Shown here in pieces: positions 1 to 40,820 of a DNA stretch of 64,000 bases (position 1 is the first letter of the stretch; each line of letters begins with the position of its first letter). The translations under genes and the position numbers were made by a program. Source of the stretch: a virus; IMG/VR virus record IMGVR_UViG_3300031344_000005, positions 1 to 64,000 of that record. One strand, written 5' to 3'. A model generated the notes under the pieces. It was not told where the DNA came from. It searched no databases and saw only the letters and a program-made list of their open reading frames with translations.

Positions 1-359
1 ACTTGGACGGGGCGAACTTGGCCAGGGCGAACTTGGCCGGGGCGAACTTGGCCGGGGCGAACTTGGCCGGGGCGAACTTGGACGGGGCGAACTTGGCCAG
101 GGCGAACTTGGCCGGGGCGAACTTGGCCGGGGCGAACTTGGCCGGGGCGAACTTGGACGGGGCGAACTTGGCCAGGGCGTACTTGGCCGGGGCGAACTTG
201 GCCAGGGCGTACTTGGACGGGGCGAACTTGGACGGGGCGTACTTGGCCGGGGCGTACTTGGCCGGGGCGTACTTGGCCGGGGCGAACTTGGACGGGGCGA
301 ACTTGGCCGGGGCGAACTTGGACAGGGCGTACTTGGCCGGGGCGAACTTGGCCAGGGCG
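1..359 (+). repeat. 15-bp tandem repeat GCG(A/T)ACTTGG(C/A)C(G/A)GG
   Basis: Directly visible; encodes the pentapeptide units. Confidence 0.97.
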
Positions 360-434
360 ACGATCCACGAGGGCGCTTCGCTGCCAGCCGGATGGGTTCG
401 CGGCGATTCAGGAATCATCACGAGAAAGCCATGA
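3..434 (+). CDS. Pentapeptide repeat protein (5' end probably truncated by window edge)
   Basis: About 24 tandem A(N/Y)L(A/D)(G/R) repeats, then a short unique C-terminus; frame open from the window start. Confidence 0.9.
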   Translation: MDGANLARANLAGANLAGANLAGANLDGANLARANLAGANLAGANLAGANLDGANLARAYLAGANLARAYLDGANLDGAYLAGAYLAGAYLAGANLDGANLAGANLDRAYLAGANLARATIHEGASLPAGWVRGDSGIITRKP

Positions 435-6519: not shown

Positions 6520-6536
6520 TAGGCACAAGACGTGCG
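6520..6536 (+). promoter_or_regulatory. Sigma54-like promoter
   Basis: TAGGCACAAGACGTGCG, GG-N10-GC, upstream of the ASCH gene. Confidence 0.55.
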
Positions 6537-6552
6537 ATGGAATAGGAAGCAA

Positions 6553-7029
6553 ATGGAAACAACAATCCGACAGTTTGGCCGACCGTGGATGGCTGTAACC
6601 ATGAAGTGCCTAAGCGTGCGGCAGCCGTGGGCCTGGGCCATCATCCACGCGGGCAAGGATGTGGAAAATCGCACATGGGCGACTAGCTATCGCGGGTTGC
6701 TGGCGATTCACGCCGGCAAGGGCTGCACGCGCGCCGAATATGACGCCGCCGCCGTCGAGATAGAGCGGATCACTGGCAGGCGTCCGCCGCCGCTGTCCGA
6801 GTTGCCGCGCGGTTGTGTGGTCGGCATGGTGGAGATGAACGACTGCGTAACCAGCGGAGAGACCGAAAACGACTGGGCACAGGACGGCTACTGCTGGTGG
6901 ATGCTCACCAATGCGCGGGCGTGCAACCCCGCAGTCACGCGTGGTCATCTAGGGCTGTTTGAGGTAACCACGGAGCTTCTCTTCCCCAACGTAGCGGTCA
7001 TCGCGGGCGCAGCCGAGACTTTCGGCTAG
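6553..7029 (+). CDS. ASCH domain protein (start 6553 or 6601)
   Basis: LSVRQPWAWAI..GKDVENRTW...YRG.LAIHA ASCH signature. Confidence 0.88.
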   Translation: METTIRQFGRPWMAVTMKCLSVRQPWAWAIIHAGKDVENRTWATSYRGLLAIHAGKGCTRAEYDAAAVEIERITGRRPPPLSELPRGCVVGMVEMNDCVTSGETENDWAQDGYCWWMLTNARACNPAVTRGHLGLFEVTTELLFPNVAVIAGAAETFG

Positions 7030-7686
7030 CCGCTCGCGCGCCTCGCGACTTTCGCAGATTACAACCAAGTAGCGTTCCGTATCTTCGGCGGTCGCGTCGG
7101 CATGGCCCTTGGCGCGCATCTGTTGGCGAGCCTCTTTCGCCTTCGCTTCCGCGACGGCTCGTTCTTCAGGCGTTGGCTCTGGCTTCTTTCGAGTGGCGGC
7201 GATGTCTTGCAACTCCCCGATGGCGTTTTGCATTTCGGGAGCCTGCGATTCCAGGGAAAAGAGTCCTGTCCCGTCGAACATGATCTCCAGTTCCGTCACG
7301 TCGAAGCCTGTCTGATCTAGGTTAAGTTCTGGCAGCATGGGGGCCAACAAGGCGAGATCCCACTCTCCCATGGCTGCGGCGTTGTTCAGAAAGAGCCCCT
7401 GCTCTTTCTCTTGCTTCTCGGTTAGGTTGACCACCGAAACATCTAGCATGTAGTCCGTCGATCCCTCCAGTGCGTCGAGGCACGCAAGGCGTTGGTGGCC
7501 ACCGACAAGGTGGCCCGTCTTCTGGTTGAAGATGACCGGCTCAAGCATCCCAACGCGCTTGAGGTTGGCCTGGAGCTTTTTCTTTGCGTGAGGGGAAATC
7601 TTGCGCGGGTTGACCGGAAGGCCCACGATGGAATCGCGCGAGACTCTCTCAACCTTGAACTTCTGAAACTTGGTCAGGTCGCTCAT
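6949..7686 (-). CDS. ParB N-terminal (ParB/Sulfiredoxin-like) domain protein
   Basis: NPRKI...L..NLKRVG.LEPVIFN..TGHLVGGHQRL motif; GGAGG RBS. Confidence 0.85.
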   Translation of the reverse strand: MSDLTKFQKFKVERVSRDSIVGLPVNPRKISPHAKKKLQANLKRVGMLEPVIFNQKTGHLVGGHQRLACLDALEGSTDYMLDVSVVNLTEKQEKEQGLFLNNAAAMGEWDLALLAPMLPELNLDQTGFDVTELEIMFDGTGLFSLESQAPEMQNAIGELQDIAATRKKPEPTPEERAVAEAKAKEARQQMRAKGHADATAEDTERYLVVICESREARERLAESLGCARDDRYVGEEKLRGYLKQP

Positions 7687-8359
7687 GGATCATGGCCTCC
7701 GCAAAGGGGAACGAGCGAAGAAGGGTTTGCCAGTCCTCGGAGTGGTTGCATTTCAGCCAACGCAGACACGGGGTGATGAGGGCGAATCCTCCCATGCGTG
7801 AGTTCTCGTCGCCAAAGCGGATTGGCGTAGGAATCTTGCGTGCCCGCATGTAGCCGAACACATCGGCATCGACCCAGTCCCAGATGGGCGCCACTTTTCC
7901 CCCCTCGGCTCCGCGGTCATGGATGCCGTCGACCTTGCGATGATGCAGCCGCCTCGTCATGGAGTCGGTTGCACGTTCGCCGTAGGCGAACCAGGAGATG
8001 CCCGTCTTCTTGGTCAGGTAGTGCTCCACGTCCCGCAGCTTCAGCTCGGGTAACTTCTCGGCCGCATCTACATGTGGCCGGAGCACGGCATACTTGGCGA
8101 TGCGAGCGAGATCCCAGTGCGGGACGAAGTGCAGCGGAACATTCGCGCGTTTGGCCGCTTGCTCGACTTGGTCCTCTACGCAGCGGAGACCCCGACACAA
8201 ATACATGAAGTAGGCTTCGACATGAGAGAAGGCACGGCAGCAAATATCCAACGTGACCAGGCTGTCCTTGCCGCCCGATAGCCCAACAAGAAGCGAGCCG
8301 CCCGACATCTGAGATGCACGGGCGGCTCGCTCTGAAGCTGTCGCCAGCTTCGATGGCAT
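7649..8359 (-). CDS. PAPS-reductase-like PP-loop (adenine nucleotide alpha hydrolase) enzyme
   Basis: SGGKDS PP-loop, YGERATDS..RR, PIWDW motifs. Confidence 0.85.
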   Translation of the reverse strand: MPSKLATASERAARASQMSGGSLLVGLSGGKDSLVTLDICCRAFSHVEAYFMYLCRGLRCVEDQVEQAAKRANVPLHFVPHWDLARIAKYAVLRPHVDAAEKLPELKLRDVEHYLTKKTGISWFAYGERATDSMTRRLHHRKVDGIHDRGAEGGKVAPIWDWVDADVFGYMRARKIPTPIRFGDENSRMGGFALITPCLRWLKCNHSEDWQTLLRSFPFAEAMIHERPDQVSEVQG

Positions 8360-8361
8360 TG

Positions 8362-8424
8362 CTAGACGCGGCCCGAACCGCCGCCGCCTTTGCCCTTCTT
8401 GCCCTTCGCTGCTTTCTTTGCCAT
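8362..8424 (-). CDS. 20-aa Lys/Gly-rich peptide MAKKAAKGKKGKGGGGSGRV
   Basis: AGGAG RBS 6 nt before ATG; TAG stop 2 nt before the PP-loop ATG; below ORF-track cutoff. Confidence 0.7.
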   Translation of the reverse strand: MAKKAAKGKKGKGGGGSGRV

Positions 8425-8502
8425 GGTGTTCTCCTACTTACTGCCCCTGTAGACCGGGGCCGTCACGTGACGCGAAGTATGTTACCATAGTCGTGGCACG
8501 AG

Positions 8503-9978
8503 ATGCTAGCTTCCGCCGAACTCCACGACCTCGAAGGCGCCTACCGCACCGCTGATGAGACGCTGGTGCGGCTGGCCCGCCGGTCGATGAAGGCGTTTTT
8601 CAGCTACGTGATGCGGGACGAGGAGACCGGCGCACCCGTCGAGTTCGCGCCGATACATGAAGACTGGCACCGGCTGGCCGACCAGTACGACCGGCTGATG
8701 CTGTGGAGCTTCATGGAGTCAGGCAAAACCTTCAGCCTTAGCGTCGCCCGCACGCTCTGGGAGTTGGGGCGCGACCCGACGTTGCGCTTCGCCATCGTCA
8801 GCAACACCAGCGGCATGGCGGTCAAGATCGCGAATCAGATCGGAAAGTACATCACGCAGTCGGCGGAACTGCACCGGGTGTTTCCACACCTGGAGCCTGA
8901 CCCCAGCATGCCGTGGAACAGCGAGCAGCTCACGGTCAAGCGGCCGACGTTGTCCAAGGACCCGTCGGTCAACACTCTCGGAATCGGCAGTAACACACAG
9001 GGCGCCCGCATCGATCGGGCCATCCTGGACGACGTGCTGAACCGCGAAAACACGCGCACCCAGTACATGCGGGACGAGTCGCAGGACTGGTACCTGAAGA
9101 CCATCCCGGGCCGCATGACGGAACGTGGCCGCATCCTCGGAGTCGGCAACGCTTGGAACCCGGACGACCTCTACCACCGGCTGGTGAAAAACCCGCGCTG
9201 GAAGGGCTACAAGTTCCCCATCCTGAAGCCCGACGGCAGCAGCGCGTGGCCCGAAGTCTGGCCGCTCGACCGCATCGAACGGCGCCGCCAGGAGTTGGGC
9301 CCGCTCGAATCCATGAGCCAATTGATGTGCCAGCCCATCGACGACGCCATGGCGCGGTTCAAGCGGGAGTGGATCGAGGCTTGCCTGCGGCGTGGCGAGG
9401 GCAAGTCGCCCGTCTACGCCCTGCGAGGCATGCCGACGGGCCTGCGGGTCTTCTGCGGCGTCGACTTGGCGGTGGGGCTGAAGAAGAGCCACGATCTGAC
9501 GGCGTTCTTCGTCCTGGCTGTTCACCCGAATGGCGACCGCGAGGTACTGTGGGTCGAAGGTGCGCGCCTCCTCGCGACCGACATCATGGGCAAGGTGCGG
9601 GAGTTGCGGGATCGCTTTCACCCCATCTTCGTGATCGAGAACGTGGCGGCGCAGGACTACCTAGTGCAGCTCCTCCAGGGAAGCACGTCGATTCCGATCA
9701 TTCCCTTCGCTACGGGCAAGAACAAAGCTGACCCGACATTCGGGCTCGAAGCGATGAGCGCCGAGTTCGCAGCCGGCAAGTGGATAATCCCGAACCATGG
9801 CGGCGTCTGTGAGCCCGAGATCCAGGCATGGGTCGACGAAATGCTCAGCTACAGCCCGTCGGCACACTCGGGCGACAGGTTGATGAGTTCGTGGTTCGCC
9901 AAGGAAGGCGAGCGCCTCGGGGCCGTCGCGCCCGCTCCGCCCACCGGGATCATGCCGCTCCGTTTGAATCGCTGGTGA
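8503..9978 (+). CDS. terL: Terminase large subunit
   Basis: Walker A-like ESGKT, Walker B AILDD, GNAW coupling motif, RNase H-like GVDLA and C-terminal D; followed by portal. Confidence 0.93.
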   Translation: MLASAELHDLEGAYRTADETLVRLARRSMKAFFSYVMRDEETGAPVEFAPIHEDWHRLADQYDRLMLWSFMESGKTFSLSVARTLWELGRDPTLRFAIVSNTSGMAVKIANQIGKYITQSAELHRVFPHLEPDPSMPWNSEQLTVKRPTLSKDPSVNTLGIGSNTQGARIDRAILDDVLNRENTRTQYMRDESQDWYLKTIPGRMTERGRILGVGNAWNPDDLYHRLVKNPRWKGYKFPILKPDGSSAWPEVWPLDRIERRRQELGPLESMSQLMCQPIDDAMARFKREWIEACLRRGEGKSPVYALRGMPTGLRVFCGVDLAVGLKKSHDLTAFFVLAVHPNGDREVLWVEGARLLATDIMGKVRELRDRFHPIFVIENVAAQDYLVQLLQGSTSIPIIPFATGKNKADPTFGLEAMSAEFAAGKWIIPNHGGVCEPEIQAWVDEMLSYSPSAHSGDRLMSSWFAKEGERLGAVAPAPPTGIMPLRLNRW

Positions 9979-10004: not shown

Positions 10005-11651
10005 ATGGCAAGTGCAATCCACAGGGATCCGGCAGCAGGAGAACGACTCGTGAACGCAGTGGCCCAGCAAGACCTTGTCGCCGAGCAGATGCGGCGGGTG
10101 GGCCTGTCGCAGCGGCAAGTCGAGCTGAACCAGTTGTATTCCTATGCCCGCGCGCAGCAGCACGACACGTGCGCGCTTGACTGGGACGGCAGCCCGCATC
10201 CCACGGCCATCGACCGGCAGGCCATCGTCTCGTCGAACTTCCTGCCGCAGGGATGGAAGGACCCAGGCGGGAATCTGGACCCCCTGCCCCTGCGGTATCG
10301 CCGGCCGTCGGTGCCCTGCCACCTTGGCAAGGTGATCCCGGCGCGCTTCACGGCGCTCCTCTTCGGGGAAGGCACGCACCCGCAATGGAAAGTGCCTGGC
10401 CTCCCCAACACCGAGGCATGGATCGAGGCCGTGAGCCACTCCTATGACCTCTGGTCGAAGATGACGCTGGTGCGAGACATGGGCGGCGGCATGGGAACGG
10501 CCATCATCGGTTTCAAGATCATCGACGGCGAAGTGGTGTTTGAGGAGTTCGATGCCCGCTGGGCGTTCCCGACGTTCGACCCGCGGCGGCCCGGCCTGCT
10601 CTCGATGCTGGAGATTCGGTACATGTTCCCGCAGGAAACCATGGACCCGCAGACCGGGAAGTGGCGCGAGGACAAGTTCTGGTATCGCAGGATCATCGAC
10701 ACGAAGAGCGACTGTCTTTGGAAGCCGCAGCTCGTCGGCGACGGCACGCAGGAGCCGAATTGGAAGGACCCCGCGACGGCCGCCTCAATAGTCGACCACG
10801 AGTTTGGCTTCGTGCCGGTCTGGTGGATCCAGAATATCGAAGTCACCGGGGACATTGACGGCGATCCGGACTGCCACGGCTGCTACGACTATTTCGACCG
10901 CATTGGTGAGCTGGACTCGCAGTCCCACAAGGGCGCGGTCAGGAACGCAGACCCAACCGCCACGATTGCCAGCGACGGGAACTACTCGACGGTCCAGATG
11001 GGCAGCGACCAGGTGCTCAAGATGGAGAAAGGTGCGACCGCCGGCTACCTCGAAAGCCAGGGGACCGCCGTGAAGGCCGCGTCCGACGAATCCGACCGCT
11101 TGCGCTCGAAGGCGCTGGAAATCGCGGAGTGCGTGATGCCCGACCAGGAAGACCGCGAGGGCGGACCCGTCACCGCGACCGAGATGCACAAGAAGACCGC
11201 CGCCATGTACGCGAAGGCGGCCCGCATGCGCCAGCAGTACGGCAGCAAGGGACTCGTCCCGATGATGACCGCGCTGGTGAAGGTGGCGCAGAAACTCAGT
11301 ACCGCCACCGTTGTCGGCGATGCCATCGTTAGGCGCCCCATCAAGCTGCCGCCCAAGATGGACGAGCAGCAAATGGGCGCGTACCAGCTCGACCCCAGCG
11401 ACAACGCGCAGCTCAAGTTGGAATGGCCGCCGTTCGCCGAGCCCACGCCAGGCGACACGCTGTCGACCGCGCAGGCGACTGTCTTGCTTGTGGGGAGTGG
11501 CATCGTCACGAAGAAGACCGCTACGCGAAAGGTGGCCTCGCACTACAACATTGAGGACATTGACGCTGAAGTCGCGCAGGCCGCGAAGGAAAAGCCCGTG
11601 ATGCCGGACTTGGGTGCGCAGTCGCTGAGCGAGTTGAACCAAGGGAGGTAA
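10005..11651 (+). CDS. Portal protein
   Basis: 548 aa right after TerL; HEFGFVPVWWIQN, LKLEWPPF motifs like SPP1-gp6-type portals. Confidence 0.85.
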   Translation: MASAIHRDPAAGERLVNAVAQQDLVAEQMRRVGLSQRQVELNQLYSYARAQQHDTCALDWDGSPHPTAIDRQAIVSSNFLPQGWKDPGGNLDPLPLRYRRPSVPCHLGKVIPARFTALLFGEGTHPQWKVPGLPNTEAWIEAVSHSYDLWSKMTLVRDMGGGMGTAIIGFKIIDGEVVFEEFDARWAFPTFDPRRPGLLSMLEIRYMFPQETMDPQTGKWREDKFWYRRIIDTKSDCLWKPQLVGDGTQEPNWKDPATAASIVDHEFGFVPVWWIQNIEVTGDIDGDPDCHGCYDYFDRIGELDSQSHKGAVRNADPTATIASDGNYSTVQMGSDQVLKMEKGATAGYLESQGTAVKAASDESDRLRSKALEIAECVMPDQEDREGGPVTATEMHKKTAAMYAKAARMRQQYGSKGLVPMMTALVKVAQKLSTATVVGDAIVRRPIKLPPKMDEQQMGAYQLDPSDNAQLKLEWPPFAEPTPGDTLSTAQATVLLVGSGIVTKKTATRKVASHYNIEDIDAEVAQAAKEKPVMPDLGAQSLSELNQGR

Positions 11652-11920: not shown

Positions 11921-12084
11921 CGAGTGGACCGGCCCGACATCATCCCATGCTGGCAGCATCGGTTAGCTGATCTTCGCCGAACCGTGCGCGATTGCCAGCA
12001 TGGTGGGCAGAAGCTACGCAACGATGAGGGGCAACTCTTCTGTGCGGATTGCGGACGCCACTTGAACGACGATGGGGGCGAGGT

Positions 12085-13227
12085 TTGAAGATCGCGATCG
12101 ACTGGGATGGCACGGTGGTCAGCCGAGACCGATCGTATGCCGATGTCACGACGCCCATGGAGTTCGTGCCTGGGGCCAAGGAAGGGCTGCTGGCGCTGAA
12201 AGCCGCTGGCCATTTGCTTCTGCTTTGGAGCGGCCGCGCGAGCCGCGCTTTGCTGGTAGACCCCGAGCTTGACCCCTTCGTGCGCGCCGGCGTCGTCGAG
12301 GTGGACCGCCGACATTGGCAAGAGTCGCGCTGGCTTCATCAGGCGCGTTATGACCAGATGATCGAGTTCGTCGAGCGTGAATTGCCCGGCGTGTTCGATG
12401 CCATCGACGACGGCCTGGCGGGTAAACCCAGCGTGGATCTCTTCATTGACGACAAGTGCATGGCGATGCGCGGCCCTGCCACGTGGGCGCGGATTGCTCG
12501 CCAGTACGGCGAAGAGCAGCCCCTGTTCGACGAGCCCGCGGCGACTGGCCTGCTGGCCCGCCCGGTCGCGAGCCTGAACTTAGTGCCTGCCGGGCCCCTG
12601 AAGGACATTCTCGACAGCGTGCGGGGCGAACTGAAGGCCGCCGGCATCGTGCACTTCGAGCCGCACTTCGCCTTGGGGGATTCGGGCTTCTGGTGTGCCG
12701 ACCGCGCCCTGACGGTCAATATCCCATGGTTTCTCGCCACCGAGGAGCTGCACCAGCTCGCCCAGGCCCGCTACCCGATGCAGTGGAGCGACGTGCTCCG
12801 GGGCGTCCGGCACGAAGTCGGGCACGCCTTGAACTACGCCTTTGAGCTGTGGAAGCGCGAGGATTGGCGGCGTACCTTCGGCGACTTCACGGCGCCCTAC
12901 CCGGATCGGCCCTGGCCTGTGGCGCCCGACAGCCCGGACTTCGTTGAGTACGTGCGGGACAGCGGGCCAGGGTACAGCCAGCGGCACCCCGATGAAGACT
13001 GGGCCGAGTCTTTCGCCTGCTGGCTGGACCAGGCGTCAGATTGGCGGCGACGCTACATGGCGGGTGCTCGTCGTAAGCTGGAATACGTGGTCATCATCGC
13101 CCGGGACGTGCTCTGCGGCTGGCCTAGCAACTACAACCTGGGGACGCCGCGGGCTTGGCGGGAAGCTTTCAGGGGGCAGACCGTCGCGCAGGCCCTGGCG
13201 ATACCAACCGCAGAAAACGGGCCTTGA
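12085..13227 (+). CDS. HAD-family phosphatase fused to putative zinc metallopeptidase
   Basis: TTG start after GAGG; IDWDGT, WSGR, GKP, FIDD HAD motifs; C-terminal HEVGH and HPDEDWAESFA. Confidence 0.75.
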   Translation: MKIAIDWDGTVVSRDRSYADVTTPMEFVPGAKEGLLALKAAGHLLLLWSGRASRALLVDPELDPFVRAGVVEVDRRHWQESRWLHQARYDQMIEFVERELPGVFDAIDDGLAGKPSVDLFIDDKCMAMRGPATWARIARQYGEEQPLFDEPAATGLLARPVASLNLVPAGPLKDILDSVRGELKAAGIVHFEPHFALGDSGFWCADRALTVNIPWFLATEELHQLAQARYPMQWSDVLRGVRHEVGHALNYAFELWKREDWRRTFGDFTAPYPDRPWPVAPDSPDFVEYVRDSGPGYSQRHPDEDWAESFACWLDQASDWRRRYMAGARRKLEYVVIIARDVLCGWPSNYNLGTPRAWREAFRGQTVAQALAIPTAENGP

Positions 13228-16752: not shown

Positions 16753-17671
16753 GCAGGTGGTGAGCGCCCATCGGCGCACACTAGACAGACTGATCGAAAA
16801 AGGCTCAGTCGAGCGCTTGCGCAACGTCTACGAGAAAGCGTCCGCCGAGGTCCTGGCGAAGCTCGAACGGTTGGGCCGCGGGTCTACCAGCTTCACGGCG
16901 CATCACCTCCGCATGGCGCTCGCGCAGTTGAAGGCCGGCCAGCTCTACATTGACGATGCGATGATCGGCGAGCTGAATGCTGCCACACGCGAGGCCCAGG
17001 TCGAAAGCCTGCACATGTTGGTACGCGACTACAAGCGCCTTGGAAAGCACTTCACCGGCCACGCGCCAGTCTTGCCCATCGAGGAGGCGGCGCGGTTCGC
17101 CGGGGTCATCGACAAGAGCCGCAGCTCGCTCCTGCGCCAGCACGCGACGAGCATCAAGCGCTACGGCGCGGCCGTCATCGACCAGACCCAGGAGGCGATG
17201 GGCGTGTCGCTGGCAAGCGGAGAAACGCTTGACGGCACTATCGGGCGTGTCCACAAGGTCATCGGCGGGCAGTTCTTCGCGGCGGAACGGATCGCGCGAA
17301 CGGAAACCTGCTATGGCGCGAACGTCGCCCATTCCGACGGCATCAAGGAAATCGCCAAGGAAGACCCCGCGATCCTGCAGCAGTGGTGCGAATTTTGCGC
17401 GCCAGACGGGCATCCGCTCGACGATCGCGTGGCAGTGGACAGCATCGCAATGCACGGCCAGGTGACGGACCCTGGCGGCGAATTCACGATGCCAGCGACC
17501 GCGCCCTTTCCGGACGCCAAAGGCCGCACGAAGGTTGACGAGTCCCTGGTGGGCAAGTCGTGGGCCGTGCCGCCGTGCCGGCCGAATGGGCGCGAGACAG
17601 TACTGCCCTGGCGCAAGGACTGGGGCTCGCCCGGCTGGCGCTACAAGGGCGGCCGACGTGTTCCCGCCTAG
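16733..17671 (+). CDS. Head morphogenesis/minor capsid protein (SPP1 gp7/Mu F-like)
   Basis: AERIARTET, DDRV...HGQ, PPCRPNGRE motifs. Confidence 0.8.
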   Translation: MAESLYEQVVSAHRRTLDRLIEKGSVERLRNVYEKASAEVLAKLERLGRGSTSFTAHHLRMALAQLKAGQLYIDDAMIGELNAATREAQVESLHMLVRDYKRLGKHFTGHAPVLPIEEAARFAGVIDKSRSSLLRQHATSIKRYGAAVIDQTQEAMGVSLASGETLDGTIGRVHKVIGGQFFAAERIARTETCYGANVAHSDGIKEIAKEDPAILQQWCEFCAPDGHPLDDRVAVDSIAMHGQVTDPGGEFTMPATAPFPDAKGRTKVDESLVGKSWAVPPCRPNGRETVLPWRKDWGSPGWRYKGGRRVPA

Positions 17672-18963
17672 CCCCGCAGGTGGTAATAGATCCCGTTCTC
17701 AGGCGTCTCGCCGGGCGGGAAGTCTTGCCGAATCGTCACTGCTCCCGCCTTCGTCGCCGAGAACATCGAGTAGTCCCGGAACGCCCGCCCCAGCATCTTG
17801 CGGGTGAGCGCCGGCTCCGCGTCCAGGAAGCCCTTGCCCGAATTGAGGTGTAGCAGGGATGTGAAGTAATCCTCGTAGGCAGCGCCGACGCGCTCGAAGC
17901 TGTTGTTCTTCTCGACCCACTGGCGGCAGACAAACGGATCGATCGGTGGCACGCCGTCCGTCTGTCCCAACAGGTTTCGCGCCGCCCAAACCGACTCCTC
18001 AAACGTACTGACCCGCCAGCCGGTGTAGCCGTGAGCCACGGTGTCGGTGTAGCCACCAAAGTCTGTCGAGATGACGGGGCAGCCAGACGCCGCGGCCTCA
18101 AGCGCGACCGCGCCAAGCGGTTCGACGTAGCGGCTTAGGCTGAACAGGCCCTTCGCTTTCTGCATGAGTTCGCGGCGGACCTTCGCCGACGTCATGCCGA
18201 TGTACCTCGCGCCCGCTGGCCACTCAGCGACGAAGCTGCTGGCGTCACCGCGTCCTGTGAGGAAGATGGGGGTCTTGAGTTCGCGAGCAACTTGGATCGC
18301 CCAGCGGACGCCCTTGGGCTCCAGCATGCGGGTCTGAACCAGAAAGTAGTTCAGCTTCTCGGCCGTCGGCAGCGCTGGGCCGAACAGGTCGAAGTTGAGC
18401 GGTAGCGGTATCACTTGGTGCCACCACTTGTCTCCTCCGAAGTTCTTGTCAAACCCTTCGTGGAAATGCCGCCAAGCGTGCGATAGGTACACCCGGAAAG
18501 GCGCATACGCGTACGGCGAACCGATGCCGCATTCGACGACGATTTGAGGCACGTCCTTGGTACAGCCCTGGTGGCCCCACAGGCAAGACACGATGGACGA
18601 GTATGGCGCGCCACCGCGTTCGAGCAGAATTTTGCGGACGTTTGCTTCGTACAGGTCCCACTGCTGGGAGTAGGCGTGCTCGCGGCACAGGATGAAGGGC
18701 GCTTCGGGTTTCTTCCAGCCATAGAGGATCCGCCACCAGTCCTCCGTCATGGCGTCGACGTGTTCGACGCCTTCGGGCGGCCGGCTGCCGGGCATACCGA
18801 TGTGGATAACCTCATGGGACGGCTTGCCGTCGGCGTCGCGGCGGTCGGCCATCATCTTGGCGAAGTACCAAACCTGCTCAGTGAATGGACACAGGTTGAC
18901 CAGGTCCTCGTCGCGTGGGTCCGTGGTCTGAGTATGTGGGAAACCCACACAGATGATCCTCAA
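17668..18963 (-). CDS. Glycosyltransferase family 4 (GT-B)
   Basis: R..PKG, EPLGAVALEAAASGCPVISTDFGG..DTV.HG.TG; TTG start after GGAGG. Confidence 0.88.
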   Translation of the reverse strand: MRIICVGFPHTQTTDPRDEDLVNLCPFTEQVWYFAKMMADRRDADGKPSHEVIHIGMPGSRPPEGVEHVDAMTEDWWRILYGWKKPEAPFILCREHAYSQQWDLYEANVRKILLERGGAPYSSIVSCLWGHQGCTKDVPQIVVECGIGSPYAYAPFRVYLSHAWRHFHEGFDKNFGGDKWWHQVIPLPLNFDLFGPALPTAEKLNYFLVQTRMLEPKGVRWAIQVARELKTPIFLTGRGDASSFVAEWPAGARYIGMTSAKVRRELMQKAKGLFSLSRYVEPLGAVALEAAASGCPVISTDFGGYTDTVAHGYTGWRVSTFEESVWAARNLLGQTDGVPPIDPFVCRQWVEKNNSFERVGAAYEDYFTSLLHLNSGKGFLDAEPALTRKMLGRAFRDYSMFSATKAGAVTIRQDFPPGETPENGIYYHLRG

Positions 18964-19637
18964 GATTGCACCTCCAATTCCACGTGTTTCCACGTCTTGC
19001 GAGCGAGGATGTCGTAGATATTTCTAACACACACGCCGAAGTCGGCGGCAAGTTGAGGCACGGTCCATCCTTGGGCGCGAAGCTGAAAGACGGAGCGCAC
19101 CTTCTCATCAGTCAGTTTGGATCTACTGTGCCCTTCTCCACGTGGGCGAGATTCCGGATGCAAGCGTGAGCCGCTGTGTTCACCACGCGCCATTCGCTCT
19201 GGGTGCAAGTGGGACCAATGCGCATCGCCGCGCGCTACACGTTCCGGGTGCCTATGTGACCAGTGCTCGTCGCCATAAGAATGTGGCGGATCACTTTGTC
19301 TGCCCTTCGCCATCATGTCCCTGGTATTGTCCTTCATCGTTCCGAGAAACAAGTGCTCATCGGCAACACAGGGCGGATTGTCGCACTTATGGGGGACGTG
19401 CAGGCCATCGGGGATTGGGCCGTGAGCCAACTCCCATGCTACGCGGTGGGCACTTTCCCCACTGCCAGCGCGTCCCAGACGGCTGCTGAGCCTACCGTAC
19501 CCATGATAATCCAGCGCGGCCTGCCATTCTAGGCAAGGCGTTGTCATGCCCGGTCTGATGAAATCGGCAAGCTTGGCCTTCGCGAGGAATCGCTGCTTAA
19601 GTCGGTCGAGTACGAAGATGCGCATGGTTAGCTCCAT
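18960..19637 (-). CDS. HNH homing endonuclease
   Basis: AHRVAWELAHGPIPDGLHV.HKCDNPPCV...HLFLGT..DN; C-terminal HTH. Confidence 0.88.
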   Translation of the reverse strand: MELTMRIFVLDRLKQRFLAKAKLADFIRPGMTTPCLEWQAALDYHGYGRLSSRLGRAGSGESAHRVAWELAHGPIPDGLHVPHKCDNPPCVADEHLFLGTMKDNTRDMMAKGRQSDPPHSYGDEHWSHRHPERVARGDAHWSHLHPERMARGEHSGSRLHPESRPRGEGHSRSKLTDEKVRSVFQLRAQGWTVPQLAADFGVCVRNIYDILARKTWKHVELEVQS

Positions 19638-19844
19638 TCAATGGCTGCCGTCGTAGCCCGGCGGACGCCCCTGCCATGGCGGTGCGGGCGGGAACATTGG
19701 CTCTGGTAGCTTCTCGCCCGGCTCCATCATCCGCACCTCGACCACGTTGTAGTCCAGTTCGACCGCTCGCTGCTGCGCGCGCGCCGGGTCCTCCCATGCC
19801 GAGTCGAGGTGCAGAACGTTGCGGACGATGAAGATGGTTTTCAT
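19638..19844 (-). CDS. Hypothetical protein
   Basis: ATGA-coupled between FkbM and HNH genes. Confidence 0.5.
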   Translation of the reverse strand: MKTIFIVRNVLHLDSAWEDPARAQQRAVELDYNVVEVRMMEPGEKLPEPMFPPAPPWQGRPPGYDGSH

Positions 19845-20557
19845 GGTCTGCACACAATGTCGTAGCCGTCTCTCCCGTCGCTCGGGTTGAACGGCTGTCC
19901 CGTGCGGATGTCCTTGCATTCCGCCGAGTAGCCAAGCCAGCGCAGCTCCGTCTCCAAGTCGCGGATCGTGAAGCCTGAGAGACCTAGTCCCCAGGAATTG
20001 ACTTCGACGACCATGATGGGCCGGCAGCGCAGAATTGTCCCACGCGCGCCTCGCAGGGCCAACACCTCGTGGCCTTCGATGTCCCACTTGATGAGCGCTG
20101 GCGACAGACCGAAGCTGTCGAGTGTCACCACCTCGACCGGCACGTCACCGTCTGCGTCGATGTGGCTGGCCCCGGCGTTTTCCTCACGCTTGATCTTGAG
20201 CGAAGCCACGCGATCTGACAGGCCGCAGTTGTGGAGCACGACGTTCGGCAGGTCCGCACAGTTCTGCCGGAGGCACTCGAAGGGCTCAACTTGCGGCTCG
20301 AAGGCATGCACGGTGCCGGCCTTCGTCGCATAGGACGAGGCGTGGTCTCCAAGGCTGGCGCCTGCGTCGATGACGGTCGATCCTTCCGGTATCAGGTCGA
20401 GCACCAGCGGAATCAGTTTGATCGGTGGGCACGACAGATCTGCGCCGAGACAGTGGTGCTGTTCGATCCATCGCGACAGGTGCGTGTCGTCCTTCAGAAC
20501 TGCGATCGAGCGTTCGCCCGGAAGACCGGGGATGATGCCGGGCGTGTGGATAATCAT
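19841..20557 (-). CDS. FkbM-family SAM methyltransferase
   Basis: VIDAGASLG, VHAFEP, LIKWDIEGHE..ALRGA motifs. Confidence 0.88.
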   Translation of the reverse strand: MIIHTPGIIPGLPGERSIAVLKDDTHLSRWIEQHHCLGADLSCPPIKLIPLVLDLIPEGSTVIDAGASLGDHASSYATKAGTVHAFEPQVEPFECLRQNCADLPNVVLHNCGLSDRVASLKIKREENAGASHIDADGDVPVEVVTLDSFGLSPALIKWDIEGHEVLALRGARGTILRCRPIMVVEVNSWGLGLSGFTIRDLETELRWLGYSAECKDIRTGQPFNPSDGRDGYDIVCRP

Positions 20558-20585
20558 ACTCTGCCCCTCGGATTGGCCAAAGAGA

Positions 20586-20801
20586 TCAAGGTGTCTTCCC
20601 CTGTTGGTCTCTCGCCGCGATCTGATGGGCAAGTAGCAGCGCGGTCCCTCGGTGGATTCGCAATCCGCCCGCTGCGCGTTCGAGGGCCGGCCTGCTCAGA
20701 CCCAAGTGCCGCGCGGCTTGGCATGTGCCCTGTGCTTCGATGAGGGCCTTCAGGCGGGTCTGATGCTCTGGGCTCATCTCGGTGTCGTTCTTTTGCTTCA
20801 T
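20586..20801 (-). CDS. Small HTH protein
   Basis: QAARHLGLSRPALERAAGG; TGCTATGAT upstream. Confidence 0.55.
   Translation of the reverse strand: MKQKNDTEMSPEHQTRLKALIEAQGTCQAARHLGLSRPALERAAGGLRIHRGTALLLAHQIAARDQQGKTP

Positions 20802-38349: not shown

Positions 38350-38350
<1 letters not shown>
38084..38350 (+). CDS. Small baseplate-associated protein
   Basis: ATGA coupling; ends in WDGG...INGG. Confidence 0.5.
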
Positions 38351-39845
<1,495 letters not shown>

Positions 39846-39849
<4 letters not shown>

Positions 39850-40820
39850 CCGAAAAGATCAGTGCAGTCATCTGCACCTACAACGAAGAGGACAACATCG
39901 CGGCCTGCATCGAGTCGGTTGCAGGCGTCGACGAGGTCGTGGTGAGTGACGACTATTCGGAGGACTCGACAAGGGAGATTGCCGAACGCCTCGGCGCCAA
40001 GGTATTGTTGCGCAGCAAGGAAGGCGGTGGTTCACGGCTCGGCGGTGACATCATCACGGAGACGCATGTCAACGACTTCCACGAGCGCTTCGGCTGGGCG
40101 CCATCATTCCACGCTGGCGACCGCATTTGCAACGGCGCCGACAAGGCCCGTGAGGCCGTGGGGTTCGCCCAGGGGGACTGGATCATTAGTCCAGATGCGG
40201 ACGAGCGTGTCACCTGGAACTTACCAGCGTTGCGGGAATTGCTTCCGGTCTGTGATCAGATCGTGCACGAGTTCGTCCACTCACACGACGCTGAAGGGAA
40301 GCCTCACCGAGTAAGCACTATCTCAAAACTATTTCGCAAATCCATGACCGGGTTTGGAGGGCGCACGCACACTTGCATGCTGCCGGCGGGGAGGATCCTC
40401 CAGACGAACCTGCTTCGCATTGACCACTACCAAAAACCCCACGACCAGCCGCACGTGCTGCCAACGATGGAGTACAGCGTGCTGACGGACGACGATCAAC
40501 GAAGTCGGTTTTATCTCGGGCGCGAATATTACTTCTATCGTCACTACGACAGGGCGCTCGTTCTCTTGGATCTGTACCTCAAGAACGCCACCGGACACAT
40601 CCCAGAGATTGCACAGGCACGGTTGTACGCGGCTCATTGCTACTGGGAGGATGGCTCGGGACGTGGCGATGAAGCGCGGCGGAGCTGCATGGAAGCGTTG
40701 ATCCTCAACCCCGAGCACCGGGACGCACTGGCATTCATGGCCGAGCTGTATCACGAGCCGTGGAAACACAAATGGCTGCACCTCGCTAGCGTGGCCACAG
40801 ACGAGGATATTCTATTTTGA
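39846..40820 (+). CDS. GT2 glycosyltransferase with TPR-like C-terminus
   Basis: [28 protein letters not shown]; [13 protein letters not shown]-like helices. Confidence 0.88.

Follow-up and report, generated by a model that had tools for sequence, protein, structure and literature searches.

This report concerns a 20-codon open reading frame (ORF), hereafter the mini-ORF, in a 64,000-nucleotide stretch of viral DNA that we call the window (positions 1 to 64,000 of IMG/VR record IMGVR_UViG_3300031344_000005). Downstream of the mini-ORF lie a gene for a PAPS-reductase-like PP-loop enzyme and a gene for a ParB-like protein, and together the three ORFs make up a self-contained unit on the minus strand. 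Genes for TerL, a portal protein and an ASCH-like protein flank this unit (Table 1). The source record is an 82.8-kb virus that is estimated to be complete. The stretch is wholly or partly present in 15 sequencing runs from rhizosphere, peat and bioreactor metagenomes, none of which is listed as RNA.

Judging from comparisons of related loci, the mini-ORF is very probably a real and conserved partner gene of the enzyme. It stands at the short end of a diverse group of mini-proteins, 18 to ~100 amino acids long, that are very basic and largely unstructured. The group adds a third part, not catalogued before, to a phage cassette that is widespread and uncharacterized.

A mini-ORF at the head of a PP-loop operon

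On the minus strand, the mini-ORF starts with an ATG at positions 8424-8422 and stops with a TAG at 8364-8362. An in-frame TAG three codons 5' of the ATG rules out an ORF longer than 20 codons. The AGGAG at 8435-8431 is the sole Shine-Dalgarno (SD)-like motif of the operon, and GGAG, GAGG and AGGA are all absent from the 20 nucleotides 5' of the PP-loop ATG. Only two bases (CA) separate the mini-ORF stop from the enzyme ATG (8359), and the enzyme and ParB-like genes overlap by 38 nucleotides. A first-pass annotation of this DNA had pointed to the mini-ORF, the AGGAG-N6-ATG arrangement, the 2-nucleotide gap, the overlap with the ParB-like gene and the divergence from the TerL gene, and each of these elements was confirmed from the sequence.

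A scan of positions 6800-8700 found 0 sigma-70 promoter sites, and the sigma-70 model may not suit the host. Contigs of X4-X7 showed no sequence variants of positions 7600-8600, but only identical sequences or short unrelated pieces.

Short basic ORFs precede related PP-loop genes

Fifty homologues of the enzyme are among the matches listed, with identities from 91% to 37%. The closest of them, P0001 (91% identical) and P0002 (74%), are not among the loci from the metagenome scan. An alignment-based scan of viral contigs yielded loci, whereas a single enzyme sequence as query yielded none. The survey set comprised 140 loci, of which 60 are viral and 80 metagenomic (the best 80 of 131). Single-linkage clustering of their enzymes at 70% identity gave 47 clusters, 46 of which were informative.

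At the start of the PP-loop gene, most loci have a short, very basic ORF that either stops there or extends into the gene. Our rule initially assigned a short Gly-ended ORF at this position to 21 of the 46 clusters and a long upstream ORF with a terminal Gly to 6. One of the short ORFs (L084) is really a C-terminal fragment of ParB, which corrects the counts to 20 and 7.

As a control, we ran the same rule on the starts of 168 other long ORFs from the loci that represent the clusters. An abutting ORF that ends in Gly was found at 28 of the 46 PP-loop starts and at 23 of the 168 control starts. We also defined a strict pattern: at most 110 amino acids, a Met start, at least 15% Lys plus Arg, at least two Gly among the last six residues, and a terminal Gly. 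This pattern occurs at 18 of the 46 PP-loop starts versus 3 of the 168 control starts. The corresponding Fisher values, 5e-10 for any abutting Gly-ended ORF and 4e-11 for the strict pattern, overstate the independence of the clusters, which share descent.

A short, basic, Gly-rich ORF upstream of PP-loop homologues is thus conserved, as the first-pass annotation had anticipated. Its proposal of a three-part system holds as gene anatomy, in that the upstream ORF is conserved across related loci. It had also expected that gene callers would miss the ORF. This is true of the 20-amino-acid form and of a 44-amino-acid ORF in phage RAP44 that is unannotated in RefSeq, but not of longer relatives (about 45-95 amino acids), which are present in predicted-protein collections.

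Coding potential and translation signals

Codon positions were compared in two subfamilies. Among 31 distinct nucleotide sequences of a family of 54-amino-acid proteins, pairwise differences at codon positions 1, 2 and 3 number 7620, 5504 and 12714, respectively. For the seven sequences of a K-rich family, the numbers are 189, 188 and 358. The excess of third-position differences, together with conserved amino acid motifs in both subfamilies, points to selection on the protein.

Of 31 loci that represent the non-Bacteroidales types, 27 have an SD-like motif 4-17 nucleotides before the ATG of the small ORF. Only 5 of the 31 have such a motif before the guessed start of the enzyme gene. A single ribosome-binding site followed by coupled genes therefore appears to be the norm, as in the window. 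In many loci, the mini-ORF stop and the enzyme start are 2 nucleotides apart or overlap. These arrangements make it likely that translation of the enzyme gene is coupled to that of the mini-ORF.

All four Gly codons (GGA, GGT, GGC and GGG) are used for the terminal Gly, immediately followed by TAA, TAG or TGA, and this Gly is kept in Bacteroidales prophages. Bacteroidales hosts are not known to rely on SD pairing. We therefore rejected the idea that the terminal Gly is a by-product of an SD sequence, given the four Gly codons, the varied stops and the persistence in Bacteroidales. Fusion of the mini-ORF to the enzyme by frameshifting was likewise rejected, because gaps and frames vary between loci.

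Properties and families of the mini-proteins

By a loose rule, 102 of the 140 loci contain a candidate. These candidates comprise 77 unique peptides, or 37 after de-replication, a few of which are evidently spurious (L010, L019, L054 and L084 among them). The last residue is Gly in 25 of the 37 and His in 4, and the second residue is Ala in 25. The median length is 56 amino acids (range 18-106) and the median net charge is +11. The window peptide is the second shortest of the set. Its nearest look-alikes are the 18-amino-acid L066 peptide MAKAKSKKRKAKKSKGGG, whose enzyme is 46% identical, the tail of the L007 peptide (KKGKSGGGGGSGQ), and the peptides of L052 and L094.

None of 25 small ORFs matched PHROGs, and Pfam gave only chance-level matches to the same ORFs, all under the cut-off. 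In the full-text literature (supplementary tables not covered), we found no description of a small Gly-ended protein accompanying phage PAPS-reductase and ParB genes.

The 54-amino-acid family occurs in Bacteroidales prophages and in gut or rumen phages, and was present in 7 of 11 genome-collection loci that hold a true homologue. Its members share a conserved, non-basic C-terminal motif, F-G-M/L-S-A/T-G. An AlphaFold2 (AF2) model of this form has two short helices and no strands, at low confidence (pLDDT 60.3). A profile of the family, searched against 1.84 billion representatives, retrieved 17 clusters, nearly all of 50-102 amino acids. The search revealed no informative fusions; a 1573-amino-acid match consists of a 19-residue piece of the profile in ten stretches. 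The ESM Atlas contains the 54-amino-acid sequence and no usable look-alike of it. When viral contigs were queried with the 54-amino-acid protein, 12 loci were found, in 11 of which a PP-loop gene lies directly 3'. The K-rich family has the form MAIKVAGAK...KKAGTSGGG. Its alignment, used as a reciprocal query, produced 583 pattern matches, 0 of which were confirmed by tblastn.

Loci of the Bacteroidales type carry up to three paralogous small basic MAR...G proteins around the PP-loop gene. One precedes the enzyme gene, and one or two follow it, before the ParB gene where a ParB gene was seen (Table 1). A second C-terminal motif, ..Y-M-G-x-x-A-G, recurs among these paralogues. Several mini-genes flanking one enzyme gene are as expected of multiple substrates.

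In Riemerella phages (L144:2255-2389 and L184:468-569), two overlapping small ORFs lie 5' of the PP-loop gene. The RefSeq record of RAP44 annotates neither small ORF, and the CRP34 record annotates a 33-amino-acid frame and not the basic 44-amino-acid frame that ends in ..N-G-A-I.

The PP-loop enzyme

The enzyme matches PF01507 (PAPS_reduct) over residues 24-179 with 36.9 bits (cut-off 22.5; 4.8e-09). It matches phrog_424 at 1.1e-17, which is better than its match to phrog_2302. The SGGKDS motif (S28, G30, K31, D32 and S33) is invariant in 31 homologues and also in a second set of 40. Other residues that are invariant in the 31 homologues are H81, D110, R129, D132, R136, W162, Y170 and D209. 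Neither set contains an invariant Cys.

With an AF2 model of the enzyme (pLDDT 92) as query, Foldseek matched 222 PDB chains at E<=0.001. The rows listed all belong to PP-loop enzymes or to related enzymes of adenine nucleotides, among them TtuA, CysH, FAD synthase, TilS, LarE, QueC, GMP synthetase and CysD. The top match is TtuA (6.9e-10; TMq 0.51-0.54), one entry being TtuA with bound TtuB. TMq values against CysH and APS reductases are 0.53-0.55. At the sequence level, a profile reached only the PP-loop region of TtuA (4.7e-05).

The enzyme scores far under all thresholds of curated models for CysH, CysD, NadE, BrxP and QueC. For example, it reaches 17.7 bits against the CysH equivalog NF002537 (cut-off 154), and the BrxP model matched 24 residues with 18.7 bits. 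The enzyme is therefore predicted to form a separate subfamily of adenylating PP-loop enzymes.

A true CysH has a catalytic Cys in its C-terminal tail, within an ECGLH motif. We rejected the assignment of the window enzyme as a true PAPS or APS reductase, given that no Cys is invariant and that the NF002537 score is far below the cut-off. The missing catalytic Cys argues against labeling the gene as a sulfur-related auxiliary metabolic gene (AMG), and the missing Fe-S ligands of DndC, BrxP and TtuA argue against phosphorothioation. A Pfam scan of 54 window ORFs, out of 76 picked by script, found no desulfurase, E1-like enzyme or base-hypermodification pathway. The same scan found two glycosyltransferases, an FkbM-type methyltransferase and HNH nucleases.

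In many PP-loop homologues, the reading frame continues beyond the start of ParB and encodes a recurring V-S/P-E-V...Q-P-A-x-D tail (7649-7686 in the window). This tail could be a real extension, or its conservation could be imposed by the overlapping ParB frame.

ParB-like and ASCH-like neighbors

The ParB-like protein of the window matches phrog_9353 (2.9e-51), phrog_620, annotated as "ParB-like partition protein" (8.8e-24), and phrog_723 (1.8e-13), as well as the N-terminal region of the PADLOC MTase_II model (6e-16). It contains GGHQR, a nucleotide motif of GxxR type. The Pfam ParB model did not match it at E<=0.01, and it falls far below the cut-off of the DpdB model.

By tblastn, 57 of the 60 viral loci have a ParB-like gene: it follows the enzyme gene on the same strand in 53 loci, precedes it in 3 and is on the opposite strand in 1. 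In six loci (L009, L010, L015, L083, L084 and L092), the ParB gene is 5' of the enzyme gene and there is no separate mini-ORF. Beyond a conserved D-E-R-Y motif, each of the six ParB proteins carries an extra basic tail of ~25-30 amino acids whose last residue is Gly. The window ParB-like protein stops 12 residues past the D-E-R-Y motif. The C-terminus of ParB is the only place where we saw the tail fused, and we saw no fusion that would bury the end of the tail. A requirement for a free C-terminus would lead to this pattern.

The ASCH-like protein of the window scores 19.6 bits against Pfam ASCH, just under the cut-off of 21.2, and matches phrog_3193, which has no assigned function, at 3e-43. 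An ASCH-like ORF is present in 57 of the 140 loci and in 11 of the 46 cluster representatives, and is mostly convergent just beyond the ParB gene, as in the window.

Table 1. Positions of the operon and adjacent genes in the window, and of MAR...G mini-genes in other loci
Feature	Sequence	Coordinates	Strand	Size	Remarks
Shine-Dalgarno-like AGGAG	Window	8431..8435	minus		Six bases 5' of mini-ORF ATG
Mini-ORF, MAKKAAKGKKGKGGGGSGRV	Window	8362..8424 (stop included)	minus	20 codons	First operon gene; basic, Gly-tailed
PAPS-reductase-like PP-loop ATP pyrophosphatase	Window	7649..8359	minus	236 aa	PF01507 and phrog_424
ParB/Srx-like protein	Window	6949..7686	minus	245 aa	GGHQR motif; phrog_9353, phrog_620
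ASCH-like protein	Window	6532..7029	plus	165 aa	phrog_3193; convergent, overlaps end of ParB-like gene
TerL	Window	8503..9978	plus		Divergent from operon; phrog_38 (1.7e-67)
Portal	Window	10005..11651			Divergent from operon
MAR...G mini-genes	L042	3684-3869, 3889-4077		61 and 62 aa	Between enzyme and ParB
MAR...G mini-gene	L023	4026-4178			Between enzyme and ParB
MAR...G mini-gene	L175	2563-2814			Directly after enzyme

Possible roles of the mini-protein

PP-loop enzymes activate a carbonyl or carboxylate oxygen by adenylation, after which nitrogen or sulfur nucleophiles receive the activated group. Examples include NAD synthetase, TilS, QueC, diphthine-ammonia ligase and TtuA with TtuB-COSH. 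For the window peptide, the first-pass annotation had listed several candidate roles: a RiPP-like substrate, an amino-acid donor or covalent DNA adduct, or a basic partner that binds DNA. For the mini-proteins, we favor readings in which the free C-terminal Gly matters. By analogy with the PP-loop enzymes named above, we tentatively propose that the basic body binds DNA and that the Gly tail serves the PP-loop enzyme as substrate or carrier; the enzyme would adenylate and transfer the carboxylate of the tail.

Under this proposal, the polycationic body would hold the mini-protein on DNA beside the ParB-like protein, and the flexible Gly tail would enter the PP-loop active site. The C-terminal carboxylate would be adenylated there, with ATP giving AMP-peptide and pyrophosphate. 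The activated tail could then be passed to a nucleophile, which might be an amine on DNA or protein, ammonia, or sulfide, the last yielding a thiocarboxylate. Such a scheme would follow the TtuA-TtuB pair, in which the carrier ends in Gly-Gly, or disordered modifiers of Pup type, except that no Fe-S cluster or catalytic Cys would be involved. In the window peptide, the Arg-Val after the Gly would need to be trimmed or tolerated.

Several observations, besides the shared descent of the clusters, weigh against this proposal. The window product itself ends in Gly-Arg-Val and not in Gly, which places it in a minority class with a short extension after the Gly. This class, in which a basic ORF has 1-9 residues after the last Gly, makes up 9 of the 46 clusters (L005, L007, L017, L047 and L051 belong to it). 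No such ORF was found by rule in another 10 clusters; among these, L003 has a basic Gly-ended ORF of 135 amino acids one gene further upstream, and in L030 a 61-amino-acid ORF of this kind ends 84 nucleotides upstream. Two distant relatives in culture, Lactobacillus phages LR1 and JNU_P7 (enzymes 30-32% identical), have no convincing counterpart. Homology between the peptide types is not demonstrable: they have properties and position in common, and their sequences cannot be aligned. The TM-scores against TtuA are no better than those against CysH, so the fold indicates a PP-loop enzyme and nothing narrower. No protease that would process the extended tails was identified. As regards a RiPP precursor, neither a protease nor an exporter was seen beside the operon in the ORF lists, which were inspected without a dedicated test. 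Finally, PP-loop and ParB genes are absent within 1.5 kb of the 54-amino-acid protein in L178. That locus may have arisen by deletion; alternatively, the mini-protein may be able to act on its own, with no need of the enzyme. In L178 (925-2619), the 54-amino-acid protein is encoded between an ASCH-like gene and a 90-amino-acid ORF with a putative small-terminase gene.

A 392-amino-acid ORF of the window (12049-13227, plus strand) follows the portal gene and an 87-codon ORF. It has a weak zinc-metallopeptidase match (Peptidase_Mx, 6.3e-05) that is below the cut-off. That this ORF, the sole protease-like candidate seen, might trim extended tails is pure speculation.

A more elaborate version of the proposal, which we consider unlikely, is a new conjugation system. 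In such a system, a PP-loop enzyme would activate the C-terminal Gly of a disordered, polycationic mini-protein without E1 or Fe-S chemistry. The ParB-like protein, acting as a clamp on DNA, would aid the covalent joining of the mini-protein either to phage DNA, as a peptidyl-DNA hypermodification, or to a protein, and the often linked ASCH-like protein would read or remove the mark. If this were true, many viral "cysH / PAPS reductase" genes that are counted as sulfur AMGs would be parts of a conjugation machine.

The main rival explanation, to which we assign a rather low probability, is that the mini-protein is a non-covalent DNA-binding accessory: a polycation resembling protamine or histone H1 that stays chemically unaltered. 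It would coat or bend DNA, or tether the PP-loop/ParB pair, and the Gly tail would be a linker or docking element. The high median net charge fits this explanation, as do a match of the L022 peptide to the histone-H1-like HC2 model (1.6e-05, below the cut-off) and the presence of the fused tail on a DNA-associated ParB-like protein. The retention of the protein without the enzyme in L178 and the 9 clusters, including that of the window, that do not end exactly in Gly are also accommodated. However, a polycation does not need a conserved last residue, yet Gly predominates at this position among the de-replicated peptides and the strict pattern is enriched at PP-loop starts. The non-basic C-terminal motif kept by the 54-amino-acid family is also at odds with a simple polycation.

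It is improbable that the mini-protein belongs to the packaging module, for example as a small DNA-recognition protein or a packaged protein, and adjoins the PP-loop gene only because late operons start there. The cassette does adjoin terminase genes in the window, RAP44, LR1 and L042. In addition, the L178 protein is followed, without a PP-loop gene, by a short ORF and then by a gene similar to the one that putatively encodes the small terminase in L042. However, the window mini-ORF is transcribed away from the TerL gene and is coupled to the PP-loop gene, which also directly follows in nearly all loci found with the 54-amino-acid protein. Moreover, the ParB tail fusions link the mini-protein to the enzyme pair.

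We judge it equally doubtful that the mini-ORF is only a leader, which would load ribosomes and pass them to the enzyme gene by termination and reinitiation, its product having no role. This idea accounts for the placement of SD-like motifs before the small ORF rather than the enzyme gene, and for the close or overlapping stop and start codons. A leader, however, would require neither the third-position excess and conserved amino acid motifs of two subfamilies, nor lengths up to ~95 amino acids, a bias for terminal Gly and fusion to ParB.

A chance ORF in a G+C-rich spacer is very improbable even for a mere 20 codons: among 20000 dinucleotide-preserving shuffles of the 143-nucleotide intergenic stretch, 437 gave an ATG-initiated ORF of at least 15 amino acids ending 0-10 nucleotides before the enzyme ATG, 65 also had an SD-like motif and 0 combined these features with at least 60% Lys, Arg and Gly, and counterparts occur in most related loci.

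Implications and other genes of the window

"PAPS reductase" genes beside ParB-like genes are common in phages. Such genes are routinely labeled as host or sulfur metabolism, for example in a table of PMC11318856. A conserved third component with a free Gly end replaces a vague label of possible DNA modification with specific, testable hypotheses. More generally, ORFs of 18-60 codons that head phage late operons merit annotation.

Some other genes of the window are of separate interest. A 499-amino-acid protein (38350-39849, plus strand), which combines an Mtd_N (major tropism determinant N-terminal) domain with collagen repeats, is a candidate receptor-binding protein of the diversity-generating type; the gene for a family-2 glycosyltransferase (39846-40820) comes next. 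Minus-strand genes at 17668-20632, amid the plus-strand structural region, encode a group-1 glycosyltransferase, an HNH endonuclease and an FkbM-type methyltransferase. At the window edge (3-434, plus strand) lies a gene for a pentapeptide-repeat protein (8.3e-34). Pentapeptide-repeat proteins can mimic DNA.

Comparison with known systems

Phages and prophages have pairs of IbrA/IbrB type, in which a PAPS reductase (phrog_2302 or phrog_424) is accompanied by ParB PHROGs; the same two-gene core lies beside packaging genes. In IbrA, the PAPS_reduct domain is joined to a second, C-terminal domain, DUF3440. The 236-amino-acid protein of the window has only PF01507 and has a ParB-like partner, so the cassette is pair-like without being IbrA proper. 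We found no Gly-ended mini-protein described for IbrA/IbrB-type pairs in the literature (supplementary tables not covered). NinC of phage lambda differs in being a lone gene of the PAPS reductase family, as which it is listed in a table of PMC10695390.

DndB-DndC, BrxP and SspD provide cases in which a ParB-superfamily protein is paired with an enzyme of the PP-loop/PAPS-reductase family that acts on DNA (PMC10853773, PMC12839542). The DNA phosphorothioation enzymes described in these sources have cysteine-bound 4Fe-4S centers and a cysteine desulfurase partner. We rejected membership of the window enzyme in the DndC/BrxP/SspD group, given the lack of an invariant Cys, the low BrxP score and the lack of a desulfurase among the 54 scanned ORFs.

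For the ParB-like gene of the cassette, ParB-dependent thymine dioxygenases offer a tested model of its role. The partner in that case is an Fe(II)/2-oxoglutarate dioxygenase and not a PP-loop enzyme, and the abstract of PMC13229309 describes no mini-protein. According to the same source, phage ParB-like proteins can be obligate activators of the DNA-modifying enzyme on double-stranded DNA.

The Pup/PafA and microcin C systems are alike in that a tiny gene directly precedes the gene for an activating enzyme. In both, a short or disordered gene-encoded peptide has its C-terminus activated with ATP; in microcin C, MccA is adenylated by MccB. They differ from the phage cassette in their enzymes, since PafA resembles glutamine synthetase and MccB resembles E1, and in the terminal residue, which is Glu or Asn and not Gly. 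They also have no ParB partner and no such basic composition.

Enzymes of TtuA type are PP-loop ATPases with a small partner, a carrier that inserts its C-terminal Gly-Gly into the active site. TtuA has Fe-S cysteines and zinc fingers, whereas the phage enzyme has no invariant Cys and hence no Fe-S site. TtuB has a beta-grasp fold, whereas the 54-amino-acid phage partner is modeled, with low confidence, as two helices without strands. The phage cassette further differs in having no E1-like enzyme nearby, in the polycationic nature of its partners and in a setting of phage DNA or packaging rather than tRNA. How ubiquitin-like proteins of archaea are linked in genomes to the enzymes they function with is the subject of PMC2948915. 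The window peptide ends in Gly-Arg-Val. In most relatives of the phage cassette, however, the arrangement is like that of TtuA-TtuB, of Ncs6/Urm1 and of archaeal pairs of a PP-loop enzyme with a ThiS/MoaD-type protein, in that a PP-loop enzyme adjoins a small protein with a free C-terminal Gly.

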